Counted from the first letter of the stretch, positions 2,471 through 45,510 are shown. The stretch is DNA of 64,000 nucleotides from Kofleriaceae bacterium (GCA_036269175.1 DATASS010000840.1:1837-65836); one strand, 5' to 3'. A program made the numbers and translations. The notes: generated from the letters alone by a model not told the origin.

Positions 2471-4000
2471 ATGAGCTTCCGGGCGACGTACTTCGGATGG
2501 CAGGGCTGGCTGTTCGAGACCGATCGCGCGGCGGTCGCGATCGATCCGCTGCTCATCGATCAGATCGGGCGCGGCCCGCGCCACACCCGGATCAACTTCA
2601 TGTTCCGCGAGTCGCGCGAGTTCACGCTCGGCCGGCTACCGCCGCTCGACGCCCTGGTGTTCAGCCACGAGCACGAGGACCACTTCAGCGTCGCGACGCT
2701 GGCCCGGCTCGATCGCCGGGTCCCGCTCTATGTGTCACGCCGGGTGTCGGCCGCCGCCCGCGACCTGCTCGCCGAGCTCGGGTTCACGACGCACTACGTC
2801 GATCACGGCGACACCCTGGTGTTCGGCGACCTCGAGGTCCGGCTGTTCGGCGCCGACCACCACGCCACGGTCGCCAGCTTCGACGAGTGGGACGCGCTGG
2901 CGTTCCTGGCCCGCCAGCGCAGCGGCGATGGTGGGATGTTCTCCAACGTCGACATCTCGATCAGCCACGAGATGGCCGATGTGATCCGCGACACCGCGGC
3001 GCGCGACCGCGGCCTGCTGATGTTCGTGCGCGGCGAGGTCTCGCTGTCCAGCGGCGTCGCGCCGACCGCGGCCGACGGCGAGCACCCGCGTGGCACCGCC
3101 GCCACACCGATCGACGAGGTGGCGCCGCGGTTGCGCGCCGGCCAGCGCGTCGTGGCGCGGCCCGGCACGATGTTCGAGCTGGTCGCCGGTGAGCGGGTCC
3201 GGGTCGCGGCCGAGACCGCGTTCCTGCGCACGATCCCGGGGCCGCCGCGGGTGCCGCCCCGGGCATTCGCGCTGCCCGCCGGCGTGATGCCGGAGCGGTC
3301 GCTGCTCGGCATCGCCGCCGGCGAGCGCGATCGGCCCGAGCTCGAGGCCGCGCTGCGTGAGCTGGCCGAGCACATGTACGGCCGGCACATCTATCGCTAC
3401 CTGATGACCCTGCCGCCGCGCTACACCGGCAAGCGCGTTCACAGCTTCGTGCTGGCGTTCCTCACCAGCCCCAGCGGCCCGGAGTGGTTCTACGAGTACG
3501 TGCCAGGCGCATGCGGGTTTCGCGTAGTCGACATCGACTTCGACACCGCCGTCGAACGCTACCTCGGGGTGGTCGTGCTGTGGGTCGGTGACTACCTCGC
3601 GGTGGTGCGCGGCGAGGTGGAGCCCCGCGCGATCCACTGCGCGACCCAGGAGGACTGGGCGATCGAGGACCCCGAGCTGCCCGGCCTGCGCCTCGTGCTG
3701 TGGTCATTTTACCATCCGCAGCGGTTCCCGGGCCGCGTGCTCGCCCAGTACCGGCGGGCGGTCGCCCTCGAGACCTCCGACGCCCCCGCCGCGGTGTGGC
3801 GCGCGGCGCGCCGGCGCCCGTCCCGGCGGTCCGCGGACCGGACAAGGCCCACCGCGCAGGCCGTGGCGAAGTCCAGACCGGCCCGCGCCGAGCCGCGGCG
3901 GCCACCCCGCTCGCCGCGCGTCCGGCATGCACGTGGCGCGCCGGCTGCCAAGCCACCGCGACGCGCCCAGCACGGCGGGCGGCATCGGTCTGCCAGCTGA
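2471..4000 (+). CDS. MBL-fold metallo-hydrolase with an uncharacterised C-terminal half
   Basis: HEHEDH (HxHxDH) motif in the N-terminal half. The ~250-aa C-terminal half has no motif I recognise. The last ~70 aa are Arg/Pro-rich and may not all be genuine coding sequence. Confidence 0.7.
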   Translation: MSFRATYFGWQGWLFETDRAAVAIDPLLIDQIGRGPRHTRINFMFRESREFTLGRLPPLDALVFSHEHEDHFSVATLARLDRRVPLYVSRRVSAAARDLLAELGFTTHYVDHGDTLVFGDLEVRLFGADHHATVASFDEWDALAFLARQRSGDGGMFSNVDISISHEMADVIRDTAARDRGLLMFVRGEVSLSSGVAPTAADGEHPRGTAATPIDEVAPRLRAGQRVVARPGTMFELVAGERVRVAAETAFLRTIPGPPRVPPRAFALPAGVMPERSLLGIAAGERDRPELEAALRELAEHMYGRHIYRYLMTLPPRYTGKRVHSFVLAFLTSPSGPEWFYEYVPGACGFRVVDIDFDTAVERYLGVVVLWVGDYLAVVRGEVEPRAIHCATQEDWAIEDPELPGLRLVLWSFYHPQRFPGRVLAQYRRAVALETSDAPAAVWRAARRRPSRRSADRTRPTAQAVAKSRPARAEPRRPPRSPRVRHARGAPAAKPPRRAQHGGRHRSAS

Positions 4001-4166
4001 CGCCGCGCCCGCGGGCAGTGACGCGGGCGCACCGAGATGGCGACCTGGTGGCGCCGCGCGCGAGCGCCGTGCACGCAGCGAGCGCCGACGACACCGAGCC
4101 GATCGTTCCCCGATCGTGCCGCACGATTTGTTCGACTCGCGCGCGCCGATCAGCGAAACTTGCATC

Positions 4167-5153
4167 GTGGCGCGTCTCGCCGTCGTCCGTCTCGGTGCAG
4201 TTGCCGTCGCGGTCGCAGCGCTGGTGCCTGCCGCGCGCGCCGACATCCGCACGCCCGGTCCCGCGGCTGCGTCGGAGCCGTCCGTGCTGCCGGAGCGATT
4301 GCCGGCGCTGGATCCGGCGCGTCCGGCCGGTGCCGACGTGGTCGCGCCCGCGGTCGCGCCGGCGCCGGGCGAGCTGCTCGACGAGCGCGTGCACGCCGGG
4401 CGGCACTGGCGGCTCGACACCGCGCGCGGCGCCGTCCACGTCTGGGCGCCGGCCGACTACGACGCCGAGACCGCCGCCGCGGTGGTGTTCGTCCACGGCT
4501 ACTGGGTCGGCGTCGACGAGGCGTGGGACAGCTACCGGCTCGCCGAGCAGTTCGCGCTGTCGGGGATCAACGCGCTGTTCATCGTGCCCGAGGCGCCGGC
4601 GGCCAAGTGGGAGTCGATCGCATGGCCCTCGCTCGCCGATCTGCTGCGCACCGTAGCCGAGCGCGTCGACGTCGCGATGCCGGCGCACCGGCTGGTCGCG
4701 GTCGGCCACTCCGGCGCGTACCGCACGCTCGGGCTGTGGCTGGCCAACCCCGCGCTCGACACCGTCGTGCTGCTCGACGCGCTGTACTGCGACTACGGCC
4801 TGCTCGGCTGGGTGCGCGCGTCCAAGCAGCGCCGGCTGGTCAACATCGTCTACGAGACCGGCCGCTACAGCGAGTACCTGCACCGCCGCCTGCCCAGCAC
4901 CCGCCGGGTCGACGGCCTGCCCGCCGACGGCCTGCCCGACGCGCGCATCGTCTATGTCCGGACCGGCGCGGGCCACTGGGAGCTGGTCACCGACGGCGTC
5001 GCGCTGCCGCTCGCGCTGCGGGCGATCGACGTGCCGCGGCTGGGCTCGGCGCCGGATCTGCCGCTCGGCCTGCCGCCGCGCGATCCGCCACCCGGCGCCG
5101 ACGATGCGATCCCGCTCCGGCTGCTCGAGCGCGGCCCCGAGTTCACGCCGTGA
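4167..5153 (+). CDS. secreted alpha/beta-hydrolase-like protein
   Basis: In-frame GTG at 4167 followed by a signal-like sequence (ARLAVVRLGAVAVAVAALVPAARA). GHSGA nucleophile-elbow-like motif and a VVFVHGYW strand. The start codon is inferred. Confidence 0.6.
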   Translation: MARLAVVRLGAVAVAVAALVPAARADIRTPGPAAASEPSVLPERLPALDPARPAGADVVAPAVAPAPGELLDERVHAGRHWRLDTARGAVHVWAPADYDAETAAAVVFVHGYWVGVDEAWDSYRLAEQFALSGINALFIVPEAPAAKWESIAWPSLADLLRTVAERVDVAMPAHRLVAVGHSGAYRTLGLWLANPALDTVVLLDALYCDYGLLGWVRASKQRRLVNIVYETGRYSEYLHRRLPSTRRVDGLPADGLPDARIVYVRTGAGHWELVTDGVALPLALRAIDVPRLGSAPDLPLGLPPRDPPPGADDAIPLRLLERGPEFTP

Positions 5154-5154
5154 C

Positions 5155-6468
5155 ATGACGGGCCACACCGGCCGGCTCCGGCGGATCCTGGGCGTCGGGT
5201 TCGGGCTGGGCGTGAGCGTCGGCGGTACGCTCGGCGTCGGCATCCTGCGCATGCCGGGCGAGATCGCCGCGCAGCTCCACGCGCCGTCGGTGATCGTCGC
5301 AGCCTGGCTCGCCGGCGGGCTGTACACGCTGCTGGTCGCGATCTGCCTGACCGAGCTCGGCACGATGGTGCCCCAGGACGGCGGCTACTGCGTCTACGCG
5401 CGCCGCGCGTTCGGCGACTGGATCGGCCTGGCGGTCGGCTGGACCGACTGGTCCACGTCGTGCGCCGCGCTCGGCTACCTGTCGATCGCGATGAGCGAGT
5501 TCCTCGCCGCGCTGATCCCCGGCCTGGCCGGCGCGATCCGGCCGACCGCGATCGCGATCCTGATCGGGTTCGTCGTGCTGCAGTGGGCGGGCGTGCGGAT
5601 CTCGAGCTGGTTCCAGGAGTGGACCACCGCGATCAAGTGCGCCGCGTTCCTCGCGCTCGTGGTCGCCGCGTTCGCGCTGTCCGGCCGCGCCGCCCCCGCC
5701 CCCACCGCGCCGGCTCCGCCCGTGACCCTGACCGGCGCGAGCGTCGCGCTGCAGCAGGTCGTGATGACCTACGCCGGGTGGCAGGGCGCGCTGTACTTCA
5801 CCGAGGAGGACCGCGATCCGGACCGCAACCTGCCGCGCGTGGTGATCGGCAGCGTGCTCGCCGTGCTCGCGATCTACCTGCTGGTCAACCTGGCGCTGCT
5901 CGCGATCCTGCCGATCGCCGAGCTGTCCGGCTCGACCCTGCCCGCCGCCGACGCCGCGCGCCACCTCGCCGGCGCCCGCGGCGCCCAGATCATCACCGTG
6001 CTGTCGCTGATCGCCGCGCCGCCGATCCTCAACTCGGTGATGATGGTCGGCACCCGGATCCTGTTCGCGCTCGGCCGCGATCGCCTGGTGTGGTCGCGCG
6101 CCGCCGACATCAACGCCGGTGGCACCCCGGGCATCGCGACGCTGATCACCACCGCCGTCGCGGTCGCGCTGATCGCCACCGGCACGTTCCAGCGCCTGGT
6201 CGCGATCGCCGCGCTCTACCTCGCGCTCAACTACGCGATCTGCTGCGTCGCGCTGGTCGTGCTGCGCCGCCGCGAGCCGGCCACGCCTCGCCCGTTCCGC
6301 GCCTGGGGCTACCCGTGGTCGGCCGCGATCGTCGTCGCCGGCGCGCTCGCGTTCCTGCCCGGCGCCGTGCTCGCCGACCCGGCCGCGGCCGGCCTCGCCG
6401 CCGCCCTGCTCGCGGCCGGCCTCGCCATTCACGCCGTGCGCCTCGCGATCGGGCGGCTCCGGCGCTAG
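5155..6468 (+). CDS. APC-family amino acid permease
   Basis: ATG lies 1 nt after the upstream stop. The protein is polytopic and hydrophobic, with an APC-like N-terminus (GVGFGLGVSVGGTLGVGILRMPGE) and YLALNYAICC. Confidence 0.85.
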   Translation: MTGHTGRLRRILGVGFGLGVSVGGTLGVGILRMPGEIAAQLHAPSVIVAAWLAGGLYTLLVAICLTELGTMVPQDGGYCVYARRAFGDWIGLAVGWTDWSTSCAALGYLSIAMSEFLAALIPGLAGAIRPTAIAILIGFVVLQWAGVRISSWFQEWTTAIKCAAFLALVVAAFALSGRAAPAPTAPAPPVTLTGASVALQQVVMTYAGWQGALYFTEEDRDPDRNLPRVVIGSVLAVLAIYLLVNLALLAILPIAELSGSTLPAADAARHLAGARGAQIITVLSLIAAPPILNSVMMVGTRILFALGRDRLVWSRAADINAGGTPGIATLITTAVAVALIATGTFQRLVAIAALYLALNYAICCVALVVLRRREPATPRPFRAWGYPWSAAIVVAGALAFLPGAVLADPAAAGLAAALLAAGLAIHAVRLAIGRLRR

Positions 6469-7109
6469 CCCTTCGGCTGGACGCCGCTACAGATCTTCGC
6501 CGGGTCGGCCCGGGTCAGATCGTTCATCCAGTTGACCTCCCAGGTCTTGCCGTCGAACGAGAACGCCTGCTCCCAGTGGGCGTGGTCCGGCCCGTGCTTG
6601 ATCCACAGGTAGCGCACCTTGACCGGGCGGCCGTCGTCCTCGTCCTCGCCGTAGAACTCGCCGCGATCGCCGTCGAACCCGCCGAACACCCCCGAGTCCA
6701 TCACGCCTTTCCGGCTGCTGACCCAGTGGATCGACCACTGGCGCTTCTCGAGGTCGAAGTTGCGGACCGTCACCCCGCCCCAGCCCAGGGTCGGGAACTT
6801 CAGCTCGTCGACGTTGACCGTGCTGCCCAGGTAGACCGCGCCGCAGTCCACCGCCGGGAACTCGTCCCACTGCCGGTCCTTGTCGGCGACCCAGCGCTTC
6901 TTGAGCCGGCGGTTCTGCAGCGTCCACGCCCCGGCGATGAAGTCGAAGTCGTGGAGGTTGCCGGTGTGCGCCATGGTGTAGGCGTAGGTGCCGGCCGGGC
7001 TGGCGTCCGCCTTGCCGGCGGGCGGCGGCCCGGCCTCGGCGGGCGCGCACGCGGTGGAGGTCAGCCAGGGCACGAGACAGGCGGTGAGCAGACCGAGATG
7101 GTTTCGCAT
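6465..7109 (-). CDS. hypothetical lipoprotein / secreted protein
   Basis: MRNHLGLLTACLVPWLTSTAC signal with lipobox-like Cys residues. The coding texture is clean and Trp-rich. I do not recognise the family. Its end overlaps the convergent permease stop by 4 nt. Confidence 0.65.
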   Translation of the reverse strand: MRNHLGLLTACLVPWLTSTACAPAEAGPPPAGKADASPAGTYAYTMAHTGNLHDFDFIAGAWTLQNRRLKKRWVADKDRQWDEFPAVDCGAVYLGSTVNVDELKFPTLGWGGVTVRNFDLEKRQWSIHWVSSRKGVMDSGVFGGFDGDRGEFYGEDEDDGRPVKVRYLWIKHGPDHAHWEQAFSFDGKTWEVNWMNDLTRADPAKICSGVQPKG

Positions 7110-7172
7110 GGGTCCAGCCTGTGCCGCCATGCTTGCCAGTGCGTGTCATGTATGATCCGCATCGTCGAATTC

Positions 7173-8219
7173 ATGCGCGCGAGCCGGCTGGTCTCGATTC
7201 TCCTGATGCTGCAGACCCGCGGCCGGGTCAGCGCGCGCGTGCTCGCCGAGCACCTCGAGGTCTCGATCCGCACCGTGTACCGCGACATCGACGAGCTCAG
7301 CGCGTCCGGCGTCCCGGTGGTGGTCGAGCGCGGCGCCACCGGCGGGTTCGAGCTGCTCGATGGCTGGCGGACCACGCTGACCGGCCTCACCCCCGACGAG
7401 TCGCAGACCCTGTTCCTGTCCGGCCTGCCCGGCCCCGCCGCCGAGCTCGGGCTCGGCGACACCATGGCGTCGGCCCACCTCAAGCTGCTCGCCGCCCTGC
7501 CCCGCGAGTGGCAGCGCGAGGCCGAGCGGGTCAGCTCGCGGTTCCACGTCGATCTCGCCGGCTGGTACCGCCGGATCGCCCCGGTCCGCCACCTGCGCGC
7601 GCTCGCCGACGCGGTGTGGGCGGATCGCTGGATCGCGATCCGCTACGAGAGCTGGGACGGCATGGTCGAGCGCGAGCTCGAGCCGCTCGGCCTGGTGATC
7701 AAGGCGGGCGAGTGGTACCTGGCGGCCCAGCCGCACGGCGGCCGCCGCGCGCCGACCCCGCGGACCTACCGGGTGTCCAACATCCGCGAGCTCACCGTGC
7801 AGGGCAGCTTCCCCCGCCCCGGCCGGTTCGATCTCGCCGCGTACTGGAGCGAGTCGACGCGGCGGTTCGAGCGCGAGATCTACCGCGGCACGGCCGACGT
7901 CCGGCTGTCGCCGCGCGGCCGCAAGCTCCTGTGCAGCGCCAGCGCCGCGGTCGAGGACGCGATCGGGGCGGCGATCGAGGCGGCGATCGCCCAGCCGCCC
8001 GGCGTCGGCGCCGACGGCTGGCTGCGCGTCACGATCCCGATCGAGTCGCTCGGCCACGCCACCGGCCAGCTGCTGTCGCTCGGCATCGACGCCGAGGTCG
8101 TCGGCCCGCCCGAGCTGCGCGCCCAGGTCCGCGACACCGCCCAGGCGGTCGCCGAGCGGTACCGCGGCGCAGCCTCGGCCCCCGCGGCCAGACGCCGCCG
8201 CGCGCGGAAGCTGGCATAG
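7173..8219 (+). CDS. YafY-family transcriptional regulator (HTH + WYL domain)
   Basis: N-terminal HTH (MRASRLVSILLMLQTRGRVSARVLAEHLEVSIRTVYRDIDEL) and a WYL core (RWIAIRYESWDG...GEWYLAAQ). Divergent from the 6465-7109 gene. Confidence 0.85.
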   Translation: MRASRLVSILLMLQTRGRVSARVLAEHLEVSIRTVYRDIDELSASGVPVVVERGATGGFELLDGWRTTLTGLTPDESQTLFLSGLPGPAAELGLGDTMASAHLKLLAALPREWQREAERVSSRFHVDLAGWYRRIAPVRHLRALADAVWADRWIAIRYESWDGMVERELEPLGLVIKAGEWYLAAQPHGGRRAPTPRTYRVSNIRELTVQGSFPRPGRFDLAAYWSESTRRFEREIYRGTADVRLSPRGRKLLCSASAAVEDAIGAAIEAAIAQPPGVGADGWLRVTIPIESLGHATGQLLSLGIDAEVVGPPELRAQVRDTAQAVAERYRGAASAPAARRRRARKLA

Positions 8220-8227
8220 TTGCCGCC

Positions 8228-9055
8228 ATGCCCGTGGACCCCGTGATCTCGGCGCGCGATGTCGCCGCGCTGACCGATGCCGTGATCGTCGACTGCCGCC
8301 CCGACCCCCGCGCCTATGCCGCGGGCCACCTGCCCGGCGCCCGCCACGCCCAGCTCGAGCGCGACCTCGCCGGCCCGGTCCCCGATCCGGCGCAGGGCGG
8401 TCGCCACCCGCTGCCGGCCATCCCGGACTTCACCGCCAGGCTCGGCCGCTGGGGCATCACCCCGCTCACGCCGGTGGTCGCCTACGATGATCAGAGCGGC
8501 GCCAACGCCGCGGCCCGCCTGTGGTGGCTGCTCAAGGCGCTCGGCCACCCCCACGTCCGCGTCGTCGACGGCGGGTTCGCGGCCCTGCGCGCCGCCGGCT
8601 ACCCGCTCACCACCGACGAGCCGCCGCCCGCGAGCGAGGATCGGTTCCCCGCCGTCGCGTGGATGCGCGACACCGCCGACATCGACGAGGTCGAGCGCGC
8701 CCGGACCGCAGCCGACCGCCGCGTGATCGACGTCCGCGCCGCGTTCCGGTTCCGCGGCGAGAGCGAGCCGATCGATCCGATCGCCGGCCACATCCCGGGC
8801 GCGCGCAACGCCCCCTACGCCGACAACCTGAACCCCGACGGCAGCTTCAAGTCCGCCGCCGAGCTGCACGCCCATCTCACCGCCGCGCTCGACGGCATCC
8901 CCCCCGAGCGCGCCATCCTCCATTGCGGCTCGGGCGTCACCGCCTGCCACACCTTGCTCGCCATGGAGCGCGCCGGCCTGCGCGGCGCCAAGCTCTACGT
9001 GGGCTCGTGGAGCGAGTGGTGCCGCCGCCCCGACCGCGAGCGCGAGCCGGCGTAG
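8228..9055 (+). CDS. sseA: 3-mercaptopyruvate/thiosulfate sulfurtransferase (tandem rhodanese)
   Basis: Active-site loop HCGSGVTACH, two rhodanese halves, C-terminus GSWSEWCRRPDREREPA*. Confidence 0.85.
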   Translation: MPVDPVISARDVAALTDAVIVDCRPDPRAYAAGHLPGARHAQLERDLAGPVPDPAQGGRHPLPAIPDFTARLGRWGITPLTPVVAYDDQSGANAAARLWWLLKALGHPHVRVVDGGFAALRAAGYPLTTDEPPPASEDRFPAVAWMRDTADIDEVERARTAADRRVIDVRAAFRFRGESEPIDPIAGHIPGARNAPYADNLNPDGSFKSAAELHAHLTAALDGIPPERAILHCGSGVTACHTLLAMERAGLRGAKLYVGSWSEWCRRPDREREPA

Positions 9056-9140
9056 TCAGGACCTGCGGCGCAGCATGGCGAGCTCGATCGCATCGCGGCG
9101 GCGTACCTCGGCGCGCGTGCGCATGGCATGGAAGGCGCCT
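9056..9140 (-). pseudogene. decayed relic of an M20-peptidase 3' end (copy 1)
   Basis: The minus-strand translation ...FHAMRTRAEVRRRDAIELAMLRRRS* resembles the intact peptidase C-terminus ...NMRIGHYVEGIRAMLAMLRRTY*. A 20-nt exact match links 9064-9083 to 10539-10558. The relic directly abuts the sseA stop. Confidence 0.45.
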
Positions 9141-9147
9141 CCGCGCG

Positions 9148-9186
9148 GCGAGTAGCTCGACGCTCCGCGAGCGCGAGCCGGCGTGA
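9148..9186 (+). repeat. degenerate copy of the sseA 3' end (copy 1)
   Basis: The 20-mer ccgcgagcgcgagccggcgt at 9165-9184 equals 9034-9053. It encodes the same REREPA* tail, with TGA instead of TAG. Confidence 0.55.
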
Positions 9187-9195
9187 TCCAGCGCG

Positions 9196-9414
9196 CTACT
9201 GCTGGTGGGTCGGGGGGAAGGTCTGCGAGATCTGCCCACCACAGCAGTCTTCGACCGTGAAGCTACCATTGGGGAGTACGTTCACCACGCACCGATTCGT
9301 GCAGGTAACGGTCTGGCCACCCACGTGCACGGTGTCCGTCGCCAGCGCCGTCGATGAGATCATGGTCACCGACATCACGACCATCACGCCCACGATCGAC
9401 TTCAATTTTTTCAT
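9196..9414 (-). CDS. small secreted Cys-containing peptide (72 aa precursor)
   Basis: Sec signal MKKLKSIVGVMVVMSVTMISSTALA, then a 47-aa mature part with 4 Cys (CTNRC...CC). GAGGAG lies 9 nt upstream of the ATG. G+C is visibly lower than in the flanks. Confidence 0.65.
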   Translation of the reverse strand: MKKLKSIVGVMVVMSVTMISSTALATDTVHVGGQTVTCTNRCVVNVLPNGSFTVEDCCGGQISQTFPPTHQQ

Positions 9415-9468
9415 GGGGCTTTTCTCCTCGCCAAAGTACGTATTGGCATTGGATCAGCATATAAGAAA

Positions 9469-9482
9469 TGACCTCATGGTCA
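9469..9482. promoter_or_regulatory. inverted repeat TGACC-N4-GGTCA upstream of the small peptide gene
   Basis: Perfect 5-bp arms, located 55-68 nt upstream of the ATG at 9414, within an AT-rich stretch. Confidence 0.3.
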
Positions 9483-9590
9483 TCGGCCTCGGGGTGCCGC
9501 AAATGACTGCACCGCCGGTATGCCACACGACAAAACGCCCGCCGCGGACCCCACGCAGCGAACGCGGCGCTCGTCAGGCCGGCGCGGCGT

Positions 9591-9792
9591 TCAGTACGTG
9601 CGGCGCAGCAGGGCGAGCATCGCGCGGACGCCCTCGACGTGGTGGCCGACCCGCAGCTTCTCGTCGAACGTGTGCTGGTTGTTGTCGCCGTTGATCAGCG
9701 GGAGGATGACGAACGGCGCGCCGAGCACATCGACCAGGCTGTCGGTCGGGACGCTGCCGCCCGTCATGCGGATCCGCACCGGCGCGCCGCGC
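9591..9792 (-). pseudogene. 3'-terminal fragment copy of the M20 peptidase gene (copy 2)
   Basis: By hand alignment to 10531-10730 there are 18 mismatches in 200 nt and no indels. It encodes ...GAPVRIRMTGGSVPTDSLVDVLGAPFVILPLINGDNNQHTFDEKLRVGHHVEGVRAMLALLRRTY*. There is no upstream coding continuation. Confidence 0.85.
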
Positions 9793-9794
9793 GG

Positions 9795-9834
9795 GTGGTG
9801 CCGCCGCCCCGACCGCGCGCGCGAGCCGGCGTAG
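9795..9834 (+). repeat. copy of the last 40 nt of sseA (copy 2)
   Basis: 39/40 identical to 9016-9055, including the TAG stop. It is fused directly to the M20 fragment copy. Confidence 0.85.
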
Positions 9835-9995
9835 CAGCGAGCGGACCAGGTCCCTGGGCGCCCTGGCCGCTCACCGCCGCCAGCGTCCACAGCTAGCAAA
9901 GTTCAACCCGCGGGCCATGAACGCTCGCGAGTTGCCCGGAACATCGGTACAGCTGGGCGCGAACTGGCTCGCAGACCGCCGTCGCGCAGCCGAGA

Positions 9996-10337
9996 TCACG
10001 AGTACGAGCGGTGGTTCCAGCCGGTGAACACGTGCTGACCGGGATAGATCAGGTTGGGATTGGCCTGGAACTGCGGATTGTGGTTGAGAATGTAGTTGAG
10101 CGAACGGCCGCTGTCCTTCGCGATGTTGGTCAGGTTGTCGCCGCGCTGCACGGTGTAGTACTGCGGCTGCCGGCCGTACTCGCCGTTGCCGTACCGACCG
10201 CCGGGGTTGCCGCCGGGGTTGCCGCCGGGGTAGTTGCCACCGGGGTAGTAGTAGCCGCCCGCCGCCTGGTCGAGCTGGTCGCCCGTGACGGTCTCGAAGT
10301 TGTCGCTCTCGGTGGTCGTGAATGAGTTCGTGGGCAT
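9996..10337 (-). CDS. small LysM-domain protein with a Gly/Pro/Tyr/Asn-rich linker
   Basis: LysM core YYTVQRGDNLTNIAKDSGRSLNYILNHNPQFQANPNLIYPGQ. AAGGAA lies 5 nt upstream of the ATG at 10337. There is no Sec signal. Confidence 0.8.
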   Translation of the reverse strand: MPTNSFTTTESDNFETVTGDQLDQAAGGYYYPGGNYPGGNPGGNPGGRYGNGEYGRQPQYYTVQRGDNLTNIAKDSGRSLNYILNHNPQFQANPNLIYPGQHVFTGWNHRSYS

Positions 10338-10530
10338 GGTGATTCCTTGGTTTGGGGCCACGGCCGTGGGCACGGCCTTCGGGAGCGGGTTTTTCAACTG
10401 TCGTGCCGCCGCGAGCACGACATGATCTCGCTCGCTTACAGGAAGCGCACGGTGCTGCGCGACTACCGCGGGAGACAGCCCCGGGGCCGAACCAGCCTCG
10501 CCAGCCCACCGCCGGGCCGTGGCCGGAGGA

Positions 10531-12072
10531 CTAGTAGGTGCGGCGCAGCATGGCGAGCATCGCGCGGATGCCCTCGACGTAGTGGCCGATCCGCATGTTC
10601 TCGTCGAACGTGTGCTGGTTGTTGTCCCCGTTGACCAGCGGGATGATGACGAACGGGGCGCCGAGCACGTCGACCAGACTGTCGGTCGGGACGCTGCCAC
10701 CCATCATGCGGATCCGCACAGGCGCGCCGCGCTGGCTGGCCTGCTGGAGCGCCGCGTACGCCCACGCGCCGATCGGCGCATCGAGCGGCGTTCGGACCGC
10801 GCGGCTCCCCTCGTCCATCGTCAGCGTGGCCAGCTTGTCGTAGCTCGCGCGGTCCTGGTCGGTCGGTGGGCCGGCGACCAGGTGGTAGCCCTGGGCCTCG
10901 ACGTGCTTCTGCAGCAGGCCGAACAGGTAGTCGGGCGGCGTCTCCGGCGTGGTCCGCAGGTCGATGTCGGCGACCGCCTGGTGCGGGATGATGTTGGACG
11001 CCTTGTCGCCCACCGACGCGGCGGCCATGCCGCGCACGTTGAGCGACGGGAACTGCAGCGCCTCCTGCAGGCTGGCGCCGACCCGCTCGGCGGAGCGGAT
11101 GCCGAGCCGGCGGCGGATCGCCGGCTCGTCGTCGCCGGTCGCGGCCAGCACCTGCTTCTCGGCGGCGGTCAGCTGGATCCGGTCGTAGTACCCGGCGACC
11201 GTGACCCGGCCGTCGTCGTCCTTCATCGACGCGATCAGCCGGGCGAGCCGCACGGCGGGGTTGGGGACATAATTGCCAAAGTGGCCGCTGTGCAGCGGCT
11301 GCTTCGGCCCGTACACCGTGAGCACGACATGCGCGGCGCCGCGGTTGCCGAACACCAGCGTCGGCCGCTCGCTCGCATGGCGCGGGCCATCCTGGATGAT
11401 CAACCCATCGCACCGCAGCAGCTCCTGGTTGGCCTGGACCACGGCGCGGATCGACGGCGAGCCCTTCTCCTCCTCGCTGTCGATCAGGACCTTGACGTGA
11501 TTGGCCGGGGCGACGCCGAGCTGGCGCAGGCCGTCGAACGCGGCGAGGAACATCATGATCGGCGCCTTGTCGTCGGACGCCGACCGCGCGAACACGCGCA
11601 GCTCGGGATCGAGCGCCGGGGCGAACAGCGCATCGCTCGACACGACCTCCCAGCCGCCGGTGCGGTTCTTCCGCTTGACCACCGGCTGCCACGGGCTGGG
11701 CTGCGACCACTCGCGGTCAACCACCGGCTGACCGTCGAGGTGCATGTAGTACAGGACGGTCTTCGCCCCGGCCTGCTTGCTGGGCCACTCGGCGTACACC
11801 AGCGGCCGCTCGCCGTTGTCGAGCCGGCGGACCGTGAAGCCGCGCTTGCGGAACGCGCCCTCGAGGAACTCGACGTTGCGCTGGATGTCGGCGCCGCGCG
11901 TCGCGTCGTTGGGGAGCGCCAGCAGGTCCAGGTACTCGCGGAGCGTGCCCTGCGCGAGCTTCTGGGCGACCTGGGGCGACACCACCGGCTCGGCGCGCAC
12001 GGTGCCCGGATCGACGAGCGCGATGAGACTGGCGAGCAACGCGAATCCGCACAACCGGGAGCGAGAAGTCAT
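10531..12072 (-). CDS. secreted M20/M25/M40-family metallopeptidase
   Basis: Signal MTSRSRLCGFALLASLIALVDPGTVRA. Motifs DSEEEKGSP, HSGHFGN and MMGGSVPTD. Confidence 0.85.
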   Translation of the reverse strand: MTSRSRLCGFALLASLIALVDPGTVRAEPVVSPQVAQKLAQGTLREYLDLLALPNDATRGADIQRNVEFLEGAFRKRGFTVRRLDNGERPLVYAEWPSKQAGAKTVLYYMHLDGQPVVDREWSQPSPWQPVVKRKNRTGGWEVVSSDALFAPALDPELRVFARSASDDKAPIMMFLAAFDGLRQLGVAPANHVKVLIDSEEEKGSPSIRAVVQANQELLRCDGLIIQDGPRHASERPTLVFGNRGAAHVVLTVYGPKQPLHSGHFGNYVPNPAVRLARLIASMKDDDGRVTVAGYYDRIQLTAAEKQVLAATGDDEPAIRRRLGIRSAERVGASLQEALQFPSLNVRGMAAASVGDKASNIIPHQAVADIDLRTTPETPPDYLFGLLQKHVEAQGYHLVAGPPTDQDRASYDKLATLTMDEGSRAVRTPLDAPIGAWAYAALQQASQRGAPVRIRMMGGSVPTDSLVDVLGAPFVIIPLVNGDNNQHTFDENMRIGHYVEGIRAMLAMLRRTY

Positions 12073-21637: not shown

Positions 21638-23740
<2,103 letters not shown>

Positions 23741-33974: not shown

Positions 33975-35588
33975 GTGCATCGCCCGCCCCTCGCTGCCCT
34001 GCTCGCTGTGATGTGTGCATGTGCCCACCCTGTGGCTGCGCCGCCCGCCGCGGCCCGGCCCGCCGATCCTGTCGACATCGTCGCGGCCCGCGCGCGCGGC
34101 GGCACCCAGCAATTCCGCTGGGAGGCCTGGTCCTCCGATGCGTTCGCCCGCGCCGCCCGCGAGCACCGCTTCATCCTCGTCGACGGCGCGGCGGCATGGT
34201 GCCACTGGTGCCACGTGATGGACGAGACCACCTATCGCGATCCCGAGGTCGGCGCGGCGCTGCGCGATCGCTTCGTCGCGATCCGGGTCGACATCGACGA
34301 GCGGCCGGACCTCGCGGAGCGCTACGGCGACTGGGGCTGGCCGGCGACGATCCTGCTGTCGCCCGACGCCCAGGAGCTCGGCAAGTTCCGCGGCTACCTG
34401 CCGCCCGAGCAGCTGCGCACGATCCTCGCCGACACCCTCGCCGGCACCGCCGCGGCCGAGGCCAGCGCCCCGGCGATCACCGCGCCGCCGCGCCCCGAGG
34501 CGCTGCCGTGGATCGCCGCGCGCGCGATCCGCGATCTCGACCGCTACTACGACGACGACCACGGCGGCTGGGGATTCCGGACCAAGGCGCCGATCGGCGA
34601 CAACCTGGCGTTCGAGCTCCGCCGCGCCGCGCACGGCGACGCGCGGGCCGCGGCGCGCGCTGCCCAGACCCTCGACCGCCAGCGCGCGATCGTCGATCCG
34701 GTATGGGGCGGCATCTACCAGTACTCGGTCGGTGGCGACTGGACCGAGCCGCACTTCGAGAAGCTGATCACGTACCAGGCGCGCAACCTCGAGGCCTACG
34801 CGCGCGGCTACGCACAGCGCCACGATCCGGCGGCGCTCGCCGTCGCGCGCGGCATCGCCGGCTACCTCGACCGCTTCCTGTCTGCCCCCGACGGCGGCTT
34901 CTACACCAACCAGGACGCCGACGTCGGCGCGCACGGCGGCCGGTTCGTCGACGGCCACACCTACTACGCGCGCGACGACGCCGGCCGCCGGGCGCTCGGC
35001 CAGCCGTGGATCGACAGCCACGTCTACGCCCGCGAGAACGGCATGGCGATCAGCGCGCTGGTCGCACTCGCCCAGGCCACCGGCGACGCCGCGCCGCTCG
35101 CCCGCGCCCGCCGCGCCGCCGAGCGGATCGCGACGACCCACGTCGGCCCCGAGGGCGAAGTCTGGCACGACGCCGAGCGCCGCACCGGCCCGCTGTTCCT
35201 CGCCGACTGCGCCGAGATCGGCCTCGCCCTGGTCCGCCTCGGCCAGGCCACCGGCGACGCCGCGTGGCTGACGCGCGCCCACGCGATCGCCGCCACCATG
35301 GACCGCCAGTTGCTGGACCCCGCCACCGGCGCCTACTGGGCCCAGACCGTCGACCCCAACGCGGTCGGCGTGTTCGCTCACCGCCGCCAGCCGCTCGAGG
35401 GCAACCTCGCCGCGGCGCGCTTGCTCGCCGCGCTCGCCCGCGCCACCGGCCGGCCGGCGCTGCGTACGCAGGCCGAGCGCACCCTGACCGCGGTGCTCAC
35501 CCCCGAGGCGCTGGATCACGAGGGCGCCTGGCTGGGCGCCGTGCTGCTCGCACTCGACGACATCGGCGCCGTGCCCTGGCCCGAGTAG
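33975..35588 (+). CDS. DUF255 thioredoxin-domain protein (YyaL/SSP411-like)
   Basis: Hallmark AAWCHWCHVMDE and a C-terminal alpha-toroid-like region. The GTG start is inferred and uncertain. Confidence 0.8.
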   Translation: MHRPPLAALLAVMCACAHPVAAPPAAARPADPVDIVAARARGGTQQFRWEAWSSDAFARAAREHRFILVDGAAAWCHWCHVMDETTYRDPEVGAALRDRFVAIRVDIDERPDLAERYGDWGWPATILLSPDAQELGKFRGYLPPEQLRTILADTLAGTAAAEASAPAITAPPRPEALPWIAARAIRDLDRYYDDDHGGWGFRTKAPIGDNLAFELRRAAHGDARAAARAAQTLDRQRAIVDPVWGGIYQYSVGGDWTEPHFEKLITYQARNLEAYARGYAQRHDPAALAVARGIAGYLDRFLSAPDGGFYTNQDADVGAHGGRFVDGHTYYARDDAGRRALGQPWIDSHVYARENGMAISALVALAQATGDAAPLARARRAAERIATTHVGPEGEVWHDAERRTGPLFLADCAEIGLALVRLGQATGDAAWLTRAHAIAATMDRQLLDPATGAYWAQTVDPNAVGVFAHRRQPLEGNLAAARLLAALARATGRPALRTQAERTLTAVLTPEALDHEGAWLGAVLLALDDIGAVPWPE

Positions 35589-35633
35589 CCTGCGTGAGGG
35601 CCGCCAACTCGGCCGGCGACCGCCACGCCGCGA

Positions 35634-38600
35634 TCAGAATCTCGCCCGAACCCCGAGCTGAACCTGCAGGGGGTCACCGGCACCACTCTGGACCGTACCG
35701 TCGAAGTTGAAGACGAGGTTGGTGACCTCGGGGCGGCGAAGGTTCCTGGAGTTGAACAGGTTGAAGGCCTCCAGCACGGGTTCGACGATGAACTGGCCGG
35801 TGTGAAACTCTCGGGACAAGCGCACGTCCAGAGACGAGAACGCGTTGTCTTTTCGACCCAGGTTGCGTTGCGTGACGGAGCCGTCGGGATTGATCCGATC
35901 CTGAGGGGTCAACGCGTCGCAGCCCTTGGCGCACCCTGGACCGTTGAAGTCAATCGATTTCGGCTGGGGCGAACGATAAGAGTATCGGGCGTTGAGGTCA
36001 ACGCCGCCGGGTAGCTGGGCGAGCAACCAGCCATTCAAACGATGTGTCTGATCGCGATCCGACAGGCCCCACTCGGCGTTGAGATCGGTGATCTTGGCGT
36101 AACGAAACGAGAACGGATCTCTCTCGTTGTCGTCGTCGGAGCGATCCTTGGAGTACGTGTAGTTGAGCTCGAAGGCGAGGTGGTGCGATAACTCCTTGCG
36201 AAGACCTAGCGTGACACCCCAGTACTTGCTGCGTGCAGTCGATTCCACGACGGTCAGCGTGTTGATGCCGTTGGTGCCGTCCGCGCCCAGGCCCGTGCTC
36301 CAGGGCGAACCGAGGACTGGGTCGTTGCGGTTGGCGAACCGCGTGAGGAAGTCGGTTTTTGCATAGTTGAAGGTGATGGAGGTACTGAGGCCTGCTTCGA
36401 GCACCCGCTCGACGGCCAGGCTGAACGCCGCGGTGCGCGGGTTGCGGAAGTGCTTGTCGAAGGCGGTCACGTCCGGCCGGACAGGATCGCCCGTCTCCGA
36501 CTGGGGAATGAGCTTGCCATAAGCTGGAACCGGTCCGAGGACATTCATGAGCGCCGAGCTGCGAGACAACGTCTGACCGATACTGCCATTGTTGGTTCGA
36601 CTCGAAGCGAGAACCAGCCCGGGGACTCGCGAGTAGTAGATTCCCCCGGTTCCGCGAATGACCGTGGTGCTGTCTCCGAGCGCGTCGACGGCGACGGCCA
36701 GGCGAGGCTGCACCATGCCGTAGTCCGAGGGAATGGTCCCGTCCGAGGGAAACTCCTGGCCGTTTCTCGTCTGACCGATGAAGTTGGCGTAGAACACCTT
36801 GTCCGGCGGTGTGATCGGGTCGGGCTGGATCTGGGCTTCCCATCGAAGACCGTAATCGAGCCTCACGCGCGGGTGCACCTGCCACGTGTCCTGGATGAAG
36901 GCTGCGGTCTCATGTACCGTCATCGATTGCGTTCCCGCTTCTTCGGCGGTCCGCCCACCCACTCCTGCAGCCTGCAGATAAGTGAGCACTGGGCCGACGA
37001 TGTCAGTTCCGGCAGGACACGTCCCCGACTCCGAAGAGCTACCGTCTGAACACTCGACGTAGCTGGGATTACGGACGAAGTTCAGGAAGCCGTCGGTAGA
37101 GCTGAAGATGTAGCGACCGTTGGCAAAGCCGCGGAAGATCTGTGAGATGTTCGTCCGATTGTATTCCACGCCCGCCTTGACCAGATGCCTGCCGCGCACC
37201 ACCGAGATGTTGTCGTTGAGCTGAATTCGCGTGTCGTCGTAGTCGACGGGAATGAAGAACGGCATCCCGAAGCGGTAGCTGCGCTCGAAATCGAATGCGG
37301 TGTCGGGGAGCGGACGGTCCTCACCGTTGAGCGACGGGCCGTCGTACGACCGCGGGCGATCCTCGCGGGCCAGCTGGAAACGGAACTCATTGTACCAGCT
37401 CGGCGCCAGCGTCGAGAGCAGCGTACCGGTGAGGGCGTGGGAGGAATCCTTCTCCACCGCGTTGGCGCTGCGGCCCCAGGAATCGACGTCGAACGTGCCG
37501 TTCTTCTGCTCGGACCAGGTGTAATTGTAGCGCAGCGTGAGCAAGTTGTCGCCATTGACATGCCAGTCGACCTTGGCGAGGTAGACGCGGGCATCATCGG
37601 TGCGGGTGATGGATCCGTTTTCATCCGGGCTGCCAAGCGCGGCCAGAGCGTCGACCACGCGCTGCTCGATGCGAGACGGGTCGGTCTGCTTGGTGGAGCG
37701 GCCGCGTTGAACGTCGAGGGACGTGAAGAAGAACGCCTTGTCCTTCACGATCGGACCGCCCAAGGTGAAACCGACCTGCTCTTGGTCGAAGGCGAAGTTG
37801 GGATCGGTCGAGCCGTCCGCTTTCTGGCCGCGCGCCGAGAGCGCGTCGTCCTTGCCAAAGAGATGTGCGGTGCCGGCGAAGTCGTTGGTGCCAGACTTCG
37901 TCAGGACCGTGACGAAGCCCGAGCTGGACCGTCCAAACTCGGCGTTGGCGCCGTTGGCCACGACGACCACCTGCTCGACGGCATCGAGGTTGAAGGTGAA
38001 GGCGGGCCGCTGGCCGCCCCGCTGCTCGCCGAAGAATGGATTGTTGAAGTCGGCGCCATCGACCATCACGTTGTTGTGAATGCCGCGTTGGCCGTTGACC
38101 GAGATCTCGTCGCCATCGGGGCCCTGTACGATGGTCACACCGGGTGTCAGCGTCATGAGACCGAGGAAATTGCGTCCATTGTTCGGAAGCCCTGCCACGG
38201 CGTCCGAGTCGAAACTCGTCGAGACCCCGGCGCGCCGGTCGAGGGCCGATGCCTTGCCGGACACTTCGATGACTTCGCCGGTGGGCCACATGACGATGCT
38301 CACGATGACGCTGGCCCCCACCGAGACCCTGATGGCACGGGTTTCGGGGACGTAGCCGGTCAGCTCCGCAGCGATCTCGTAGTCTCCAGTCGGCAATAGC
38401 GGCGCCAGGAACCGGCCCTCGTCGTCGGCCACGTAGCTTCGTTTCAGGTTCGTCCCGACGTTGCGCAGCAAGACCGTGGCACCGGCAAGGCTCTTCCCGT
38501 CTCCGTCCACGACGGCGCCTTCGACGACGCCAGTCGTGGCCTGCGACTGACCCAGCACACTCGTCGGGATCAGCCAGAGAATCGCAACCGCAGCGATCCA

Positions 38601-38717
38601 TCCGGCTCTACCGCGAGGATTCCGCGTGCCCCTCCCTGTCACGCCATCGCGTGAGGCGAATAGGAATGGAAAGAGGCACCGAGCGACGCGACGAACAGCG
38701 ATGGTTTCTGTGCGCAT
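35634..38717 (-). CDS. Oar-like TonB-dependent transporter (carboxypeptidase-regulatory-like domain + barrel)
   Basis: TGVVEGAVVDGDGKSLAGATVLL, plug region (NGRNFLGLMTLTPGV...VNGQRGIHNNVMVDGADFNNPFFG), and C-terminal ...GVRARF. G+C is visibly lower than in neighbouring genes. The true start may be an internal GTG near 38642. Confidence 0.85.
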   Translation of the reverse strand: MRTETIAVRRVARCLFPFLFASRDGVTGRGTRNPRGRAGWIAAVAILWLIPTSVLGQSQATTGVVEGAVVDGDGKSLAGATVLLRNVGTNLKRSYVADDEGRFLAPLLPTGDYEIAAELTGYVPETRAIRVSVGASVIVSIVMWPTGEVIEVSGKASALDRRAGVSTSFDSDAVAGLPNNGRNFLGLMTLTPGVTIVQGPDGDEISVNGQRGIHNNVMVDGADFNNPFFGEQRGGQRPAFTFNLDAVEQVVVVANGANAEFGRSSSGFVTVLTKSGTNDFAGTAHLFGKDDALSARGQKADGSTDPNFAFDQEQVGFTLGGPIVKDKAFFFTSLDVQRGRSTKQTDPSRIEQRVVDALAALGSPDENGSITRTDDARVYLAKVDWHVNGDNLLTLRYNYTWSEQKNGTFDVDSWGRSANAVEKDSSHALTGTLLSTLAPSWYNEFRFQLAREDRPRSYDGPSLNGEDRPLPDTAFDFERSYRFGMPFFIPVDYDDTRIQLNDNISVVRGRHLVKAGVEYNRTNISQIFRGFANGRYIFSSTDGFLNFVRNPSYVECSDGSSSESGTCPAGTDIVGPVLTYLQAAGVGGRTAEEAGTQSMTVHETAAFIQDTWQVHPRVRLDYGLRWEAQIQPDPITPPDKVFYANFIGQTRNGQEFPSDGTIPSDYGMVQPRLAVAVDALGDSTTVIRGTGGIYYSRVPGLVLASSRTNNGSIGQTLSRSSALMNVLGPVPAYGKLIPQSETGDPVRPDVTAFDKHFRNPRTAAFSLAVERVLEAGLSTSITFNYAKTDFLTRFANRNDPVLGSPWSTGLGADGTNGINTLTVVESTARSKYWGVTLGLRKELSHHLAFELNYTYSKDRSDDDNERDPFSFRYAKITDLNAEWGLSDRDQTHRLNGWLLAQLPGGVDLNARYSYRSPQPKSIDFNGPGCAKGCDALTPQDRINPDGSVTQRNLGRKDNAFSSLDVRLSREFHTGQFIVEPVLEAFNLFNSRNLRRPEVTNLVFNFDGTVQSGAGDPLQVQLGVRARF

Positions 38718-39120
38718 GAGTAAATGAAACCGGCGTTTCGGAGAATGGCGCGAGAATAGGTAAGCTCGGGATAGCAGGCAAGCGTTTGGCGGCGCCTTTG
38801 GATGGATCCATTCGAGGCGCCGGTGTGGATCCAGGTGGGCGGCGGCGGCGGCGGCGTGGAGCGGTCAGCGGGCAGCGGCGCCGGTCGAGGGATGACCGGA
38901 CGATGCGCTGGATGGTCGCGGGGTCGTGGTACTCGAAGTCATCCTGGATGACCAGAAGGCGCGGCGGCGGCACGATCGGCGTCGGTGGCAATGCCAGGAG
39001 TGGCAAGGACACTCCAGCGGGGTTTCGGACGCTCCACGGGATGCCTCGATGTGCCGCGAGGTGGGATTGGCAGCCATCCAGGCAGCGCAAACCCCAGGCA
39101 GTCGGGCGCGACGGAGACGA

Positions 39121-43465: not shown

Positions 43466-43507
43466 GGCTTCGTGCTGCAGGCTGGCCCAGGCGCGCCGCG
43501 GCCGCAG

Positions 43508-43540
43508 CCGGGATGCAGCGAACCGGACCGCCGCGGCGGC
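43508..43540. repeat. direct repeat copy A (21-bp perfect core CCGGGATGCAGCGAACCGGAC)
   Basis: Identical 21-mer at 45478-45498. The similarity extends to 33 nt with 3 mismatches. It lies 43 nt upstream of the ATG at 43465. Confidence 0.9.
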
Positions 43541-45439: not shown

Positions 45440-45477
45440 GGCGCCGCCGGACGGGGCGCCGGTGCAGCCAACCGCGC

Positions 45478-45510
45478 CCGGGATGCAGCGAACCGGACGT
45501 CCGCGGGGGC
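45478..45510. repeat. direct repeat copy B (21-bp perfect core)
   Basis: Identical to 43508-43528. It lies 39 nt upstream of the kinase ATG at 45439. Confidence 0.9.

Follow-up and report, generated by a model that had tools for sequence, protein, structure and literature searches.

A probable recombination scar with duplicated gene ends at a variable slot between sseA and an M20 peptidase gene in a Kofleriaceae genome

We analyzed a 64-kb stretch of DNA (the window; GC 72%) from the metagenome-assembled genome of a soil myxobacterium of the family Kofleriaceae (Myxococcota), in which the ends of two convergent genes, sseA (8228–9055, plus strand) and an M20 peptidase gene (10531–12072, minus strand), recur around two small genes lying between them. 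An original prediction, made from the sequence alone, had described the region as serial duplications of a tail-to-tail gene junction at a hotspot for small exported-protein genes. The repeated ends are real, they meet at a defined joint, the surplus M20 tail has decayed, and the content of the locus is polymorphic among relatives. The region is best read as a recombination scar at a hypervariable intergenic slot, not as a machine or a new mobile system. The specific origin that we favor, with about even confidence, is that a single illegitimate joint placed two alleles of the same variable islet in tandem, through the additive integration of an allelic fragment.

Repeated gene ends and the joint between them

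The features follow each other in the order that had been predicted: sseA, M20 tail, sseA tail, a gene for a 72-aa peptide, a second M20 tail, a second sseA tail, a LysM gene and the M20 gene. Both flanking genes are intact. The sseA gene encodes a rhodanese-type sulfurtransferase of 275 aa (Pfam Rhodanese, E 1.7e-27), equal in length to those of relatives, and the resident M20 gene a peptidase of 513 aa (Pfam Peptidase_M20 and M20_dimer). The larger surplus M20 tail, T2 (9591–9795, minus strand), is a 205-nt pseudo-copy of the M20 3' end consisting of 68 codons and a stop, and it abuts sseAt'' (9796–9834, plus strand), which repeats the final 39 nt of sseA. A self-comparison aligned 9593–9795 with 10533–10735 at 91.6% identity over 203 nt, ungapped (E 2e-78), and 9791–9834 with 9012–9055 at 95.5% over 44 nt (E 1e-12), and both repeats of the original prediction thus stand. 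Counted from the stop codon, the M20 tail and T2 are identical at 185 of 204 positions, and the unambiguous sseA part of the right copy (9796–9834) is identical at 38 of 39. Beyond these, the self-comparison of the 64-kb window gave no further repeat of the gene-tail type.

T2 and sseAt'' are fused at 9791–9796, where a three-way alignment places M20 codon ~446 next to sseA codon ~263. The corresponding breakpoints are X, at ~10735 in the M20 gene and beside the palindrome GGCGCGCC, and Y, at ~9016 in sseA. The copy reads GCGGG/T at the joint, M20 GCTGG and sseA GCGAG, and the microhomology at 9795/9796 amounts to 1–5 nt and is imperfect; an M20 allele with CCG at the joint codon, as in the relative L002, would carry the M20 homology to 9795. 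Short, imperfect microhomology of this kind is the signature of illegitimate recombination, and the fusion of an M20 tail to an sseA tail has, as had been pointed out, the geometry expected from duplicating an abutting convergent junction.

To establish the direction of change, we polarized the differences between T2 and the resident tail with six relatives. The changes specific to T2 comprise seven non-synonymous and zero to two synonymous ones. The replacements are M>T (in RMMGG), V>I, N>K and M>L (both in DENM), Y>H (in GHY), I>V and a further M>L, and five of the seven (M>T, V>I, N>K, the M>L of DENM and Y>H) affect residues invariant in all six outgroup relatives. The changes specific to the resident tail are mostly synonymous, with four at third positions, a TGA-to-TAG change of the stop and one I/V replacement. 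This difference argues that T2 is a relic free of constraint, as opposed to a tail from a co-assembled strain. T2 is accordingly a non-functional pseudo-tail, and its substitution pattern speaks against the possibility, raised with the original prediction, that the copies are parts of functional genes. T2 and the resident tail have derived states in common against all relatives (the Asp in LVDVLG, and RRTY) and are sister sequences within the lineage of the window. T2 carries none of the seven resident-specific changes, and the split between the two is therefore old; its age is on a scale similar to the divergence from L140, the closest relative (7% in nucleotides). A terminator-like hairpin with a T-run (9535–9565, minus strand) lies 25 nt downstream of the T2 stop codon and fits T2 having formerly ended a transcribed M20 gene.

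The left-hand repeats are much shorter. T1 (9056–9083, minus strand) is a 28-nt relic of the M20 3' end that includes an ancestral-type TGA stop and adjoins the sseA stop codon; it contains a 20-nt exact match to 10539–10558, and its score against the M20 end was reached by none of 300 shuffles. The other fragment, sseAt' (9165–9186, plus strand), consists of an exact 20-nt match of 9165–9184 to 9034–9053, followed by TGA. The original prediction had placed degenerate tail copies at 9056–9140 and 9148–9186. Only their outer parts, 9056–9083 with the M20 end and 9165–9186 with the sseA end, rise above chance, while 9084–9147 resembles the M20 tail no more than shuffled sequence does. The left unit is thus two short exact fragments flanking 81 nt of unrelated filler (9084–9164), which likewise stays at the level of shuffled controls against the M20 tail and matches none of the loci compared, and not a uniformly decayed copy. 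The predicted fold of 9040–9195 was no more stable than those of shuffled sequences. One codon bears on the order of the copies: it is GAG, the derived state, in the resident sseA and in the left 20-mer, and GCG in sseAt'', the ancestral state found in the more distant L008 (L001 has the synonymous GCC). Because the left fragment carries the derived codon of the resident gene and the right copy the ancestral one, a series of duplications with the older copies on the left is not supported. A third sseA-tail relic at 9547–9590, proposed by a BLAST extension to L008, showed weak and gapped similarity and was not adopted.

Cassette genes and the variable slot

The interiors of the two units, 9187–9590 and 9835–10530, show no similarity above shuffled controls, in agreement with the view that the cassettes are unrelated. 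The first contains a gene for a 72-aa peptide (9196–9414, minus strand) without a Pfam match and without a homologue other than itself among 5.8 billion proteins. A Sec-type signal peptide (MKKLKSIVGVMVVMSVTMISSTALA/TD) and four Cys can be read from its sequence. The second contains a gene for a 113-aa LysM protein (9996–10337, minus strand; Pfam LysM), separated from sseAt'' by a 161-nt spacer (9835–9995) that is absent from L140. The GC content is 0.589 in the 72-aa gene and 0.643 in the LysM gene, against ~0.71–0.76 in the flanking genes and 0.72 in the window, which confirms the low GC noted earlier for both. The description of the two products as secreted fits the 72-aa peptide, with its classical N-terminal signal peptide, but has to be modified for the LysM protein, which lacks one and has instead a double-glycine-type leader.

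The LysM protein belongs to a family of ~20 homologous clusters, 48–78% identical to it and found in Kofleriaceae-like genomes; exact look-ups of the LysM and M20 proteins returned no record. Family members have an invariant Gly-Gly at residues 27–28, preceded by the motif F-E-T-[VLI]..[DE].L..A, and the pair fits a predicted double-glycine export leader that, once cleaved off, would leave a Tyr/Gly/Pro-rich segment followed by the LysM domain. The small LysM proteins may be exported bacteriocin-like or cell-wall-binding peptides. The conservation extends upstream of the gene (10338–10507, minus strand), where ~150–170 nt are 75–88% identical across six unrelated genomic contexts (counterparts at L140 2418–2585, L056 1533–1674, L059 2925–3081, L054 4850–4947 and L051 4846–4944) and contain an invariant sigma54-like motif, GGCACG-N4-TTGA (10393–10407 in the window). 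We considered a structured RNA leader and rejected it: the region is conserved, but covariation did not support a structure and there was no Rfam hit, the scan of 8800–10800 giving no real family and nothing but a miRNA-like hairpin judged spurious. More likely, the stretch is a promoter or regulatory region under conservation. The members of the family occur in different genomic contexts, and five of the six contexts examined are convergent junctions. In the five contexts other than the window, the LysM homologues have no flanking tail copies, and tail copies are therefore not a general signature of LysM cassettes.

Comparison of related loci shows that the slot after sseA is a true hotspot, as had been proposed. 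It is empty in L008, a more distant deltaproteobacterial genome, where sseA and M20 are convergent with ~15 nt between their stops. L001, a Kofleriaceae genome (M20 90% identical in amino acids), has ~400 nt after sseA with a 127-aa open reading frame (ORF) on the other strand, and L141 (sseA 84% in amino acids) has a DUF1801 gene between sseA and M20. In the closest relative, L140, which is 92.8% identical in nucleotides over the WYL regulator gene and sseA, sseA is directly followed by the LysM cassette, with the LysM gene at 2091–2459, and then by an SDR-like gene; the L140 locus lacks M20, the 72-aa gene and tail copies. Other genes follow sseA in L142 and L144–147 (sseA 82% in amino acids). 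Among the relatives compared, none has tail copies at this slot, which were seen in the window genome only. A metagenome scan with sseA gave best matches of only 74% identity, none of them with convergent sseA and M20. Upstream of its block of WYL and sseA genes, L142 has a tandem 204-nt repeat (359–561 and 579–778, 90% identity) covering ORFs of 51 and 49 aa.

A search for mobility machinery was negative: neither an integrase nor a transposase was found in Pfam scans of the locus proteins and 20 large ORFs or in the Joint Genome Institute (JGI) calls for the left flank, ~30 genes in all with small ORFs not exhaustively covered, in line with the original prediction. The genes scanned across the window are metabolic, transport and signaling genes, and the one directly upstream of sseA encodes a WYL/WCX transcription regulator (7212–8219, plus strand). 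The inserts are 0.4–0.7 kb long with one small gene each and no tyrosine or serine recombinase, and their boundaries share no motif or att-like repeat besides the gene tails.

Elsewhere in the window, we observed direct repeats at 35054–35120 and 35225–35294 (70 nt, 80%) and at 43502–43540 and 45472–45510 (39 nt, 87%), and an inverted match of ~1.1 kb (69%) between 1292–2367 and 21667–22744, the latter arm lying in a PAS/GAF histidine-kinase gene. The GC content falls to 62–65% at 35500–39000, against 72–78%, and this segment overlaps a TonB-dependent-receptor-like outer-membrane gene (35634–38864, minus strand).

Origin of the stacked units

Our favored explanation, which we regard as the most economical, takes sseA and M20 to have been convergent and stop-to-stop ancestrally, as they still are in L008, with different lineages filling the slot with different small genes. 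Each unit of the window resembles a separate, complete allele (sseA end, cassette, M20 end), because the interiors are unrelated and such alleles exist in relatives; the direct succession of sseA and the LysM cassette in L140 supports an added allele. A second version of the locus, allelic or closely paralogous, with the sseA end, the 72-aa gene and the M20 end, would have been added beside the resident one (sseA end, LysM cassette, M20) without replacing it. One crossover would have been homologous and located inside a flanking gene, and the other illegitimate, at 9795/9796, joining M20 codon ~446 to sseA codon ~263 across at most 5 nt of imperfect microhomology. The process would resemble homology-facilitated illegitimate recombination, and integration of a circularized fragment by a single crossover would yield the same product. 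The outcome would be intact flanking genes and a surplus, non-functional tail of each, the M20 one being T2, which has drifted since. The 28-nt and 20-nt fragments around the 81-nt filler at the sseA stop may stem from another, smaller event of broadly similar kind. From the structure of the locus we infer the donor, the order of the events and the route, be it incoming DNA or a sister chromosome.

Several points weigh against an added allele. No donor allele combining sseA, the 72-aa gene and M20 was found, and the 72-aa peptide is an orphan. To our knowledge, neither natural transformation nor another route of DNA uptake has been described for Kofleriaceae. The window-specific substitutions are evenly spread along M20 and thus do not point to import of a segment into the resident gene; for the same reason, we rejected an imported resident M20 tail. 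Neither the 81-nt filler nor the fact that both units reuse approximately one stretch of the sseA tail is accounted for. Finally, the sister relationship of T2 and the resident tail agrees equally well with duplication in situ.

The latter is the main rival, which we regard as possible though clearly less probable. It would start from a microhomology-mediated tandem duplication of ~0.9 kb, from sseA codon ~263 to M20 codon ~446, between sister chromosomes; one of the cassettes would later have been replaced by homologous recombination through the sseA and T2 arms, and a second small duplication or deletion would have produced the left-hand fragments. In its favor, no rearrangement is commoner in bacteria than tandem duplication, the joint is built exactly as the join point of one would be, short microhomology included, and the two M20 tails are sisters in the lineage. 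A plain duplication is insufficient without extra replacement events because the cassettes share no sequence, and at least one complete and precise cassette replacement has to be added to it. The closest relative, L140, has no trace of a duplication. Stability points the same way. Long tandem duplications are made unstable by RecA-dependent loss, and a fresh direct repeat of 940 bp would have had to survive until the replacement, whereas an added allele repeats only 205 + 39 nt and would be stable enough to persist. Of the explanations considered, we find the least probable to be an assembly chimera, in which an assembler concatenated two alleles of the locus from co-existing strains. The window does come from a metagenome-assembled genome, and the one independent contig stops inside the region, soon after the joint. 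That contig (JGI Ga0376688_0006150, sample 3300036818) was, however, assembled separately and is 99.97% identical to window positions 3196–9890; it includes sseA, the left fragments and the 72-aa gene as well as both T2 and the second sseA tail with their joint. Its last 20 nt match the window up to ~9932, and it also supports continuity into the spacer. The sequences at X and Y share at most 5 nt, probably too little to be linked in a k-mer graph without real reads, and the seven non-synonymous changes of T2 would be unexpected in a functional allele of a co-existing strain. Compared with window positions 9885–9932, the contig end lacks two short stretches (17 and 15 nt) of the spacer that follows the second sseA tail; these deletions are either strain-level indel variation or a contig-end artefact.

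A further explanation, improbable and only slightly less so than a chimera, invokes site-specific or structure-directed integration at the GC palindrome CGGCGCGCCG of M20 by a small integrase-less element bringing a replacement M20 tail, with either a remote recombinase or breakage provoked by the palindrome. It draws on relics of the M20 tail in other genomes. In L004 (3863–3893, 4070–4087 and 4097–4120), of a different Kofleriaceae lineage, exact copies of an M20 site, 24 nt direct and 18 nt inverted, lie just past the M20 stop; they derive from the "RGAPVRIRM" site at this palindrome, and their boundary falls within ~3 nt of the window breakpoint X. The betaproteobacterial single-cell genome L006 (8332–8491 and 10917–11157) has a 753-aa gene between the M20 stop and a frameshifted M20-tail relic of ~250 nt, 95.6% identical over 160 nt, so that here, independently, an inserted gene is again flanked by a duplicated M20 tail. 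L048 has a frameshifted M20 tail of ~290 nt (~6985–7271) with no M20 body within 7 kb. The relics of L006 and L048 start ~45 and ~85 nt upstream of X, however; a start of the L006 relic at X itself was rejected as the alignment extends ~45 nt further. One coincidence among four relics has by our own estimate a chance of ~5–8%. The ~30 genes checked included no recombinase gene, the cassettes lack a shared bounding motif or inverted repeat and are bounded by gene tails, and the LysM cassettes elsewhere have no flanking tail copies. It is similarly doubtful, yet conceivable, that the palindrome is a recurrent and possibly enzyme-recognized breakpoint that stacks small, self-promoted genes for exported proteins in tandem, each with replacement ends for both flanking genes. 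If true, convergent gene junctions in Myxococcota would host a cassette-accumulating system that is integrase-less or encoded remotely.

The site copies in L004 adjoin a gene for a 154–190-aa orphan protein, and in L048 a nitroreductase-like ORF lies immediately downstream of the M20 tail. The M20 peptidases (L001–L047) are 60–74% identical as proteins across Myxococcota, Acidobacteriota, Beta- and Gammaproteobacteria, and the last ~200 nt of the gene retain at least ~80% nucleotide identity between classes, which suggests horizontal spread or very strong constraint.

Comparison with known systems

Integrative elements that target gene 3' ends carry a replacement gene end and are bounded by direct repeats, attL and attR. 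The window is similar in that the target gene is intact and a displaced copy of its 3' end lies beyond the insert, and repeated events would stack such copies. It differs in having no integrase, no defined att core and an insert of less than 1 kb, and also because the insert contains the tail of the opposite flanking gene; the insert therefore originates from the same locus and not from an independent element. Unlike an integron-like cassette array, the locus has no integrase gene beside it or among the ~30 genes checked across the window, no shared attC-like sites and no Rfam match.

In content, the locus is like the minimal mobile elements (Saunders & Snyder 2002; Snyder et al. 2007), in which, according to PMC3787668, varied whole-gene cassettes occupy the space between the same conserved flanks in close relatives and are replaced by homologous recombination in both flanks. 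In the same account, these elements have no mobility genes or terminal repeats and their cassettes have a GC content below that of the genome, both of which agree with the window. The difference is that the alleles of the window are stacked in tandem, with both flanking gene ends duplicated and not replaced, and that the hosts there are naturally competent Neisseria and here soil Myxococcota.

The proposed mechanism resembles homology-facilitated illegitimate recombination (de Vries & Wackernagel 2002; Prudhomme et al. 2002; Meier & Wackernagel 2003), for which PMC6382021 gives this outline: a homologous anchor is combined with an illegitimate joint at a few GC-rich bases, and DNA is added without a dedicated recombinase. 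There, experiments document the process in natural transformation and usually with loss of recipient DNA, whereas the joint of the window lies upstream of the end of the anchor gene, recipient sequence has been duplicated, and the process would have to be read from its product. The joint would fit the 3–10 nt of GC-rich microhomology expected beside a homologous anchor, but the even spread of the window-specific changes along M20 leaves the anchor crossover without a recognizable position. Microhomology-mediated tandem duplication, described in bioRxiv 10.64898/2026.02.28.708716 and PMC8639346, has a head-to-tail repeat with a novel join point, short microhomology at that point, and units that copy each other over their full length, and the window agrees with the first two of these three features; the units of such a duplication should start out identical, and those of the window are related at their ends only.

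Unless the breakpoint in common with L004 exceeds coincidence, no new mechanism is indicated. The locus adds a new case to processes already known, and the scar, though real, is rather ordinary. Its value lies in being a clean natural example of a variable slot gaining a second cassette with neither neighbor gene damaged, one illegitimate joint having duplicated the ends of both. It shows that, in a large, GC-rich genome, scars of this type can survive for roughly the span of divergence between related species, and it offers a dated and polarized case for models of gene gain in Myxococcota, which differs from the minimal mobile elements in retaining both alleles side by side.

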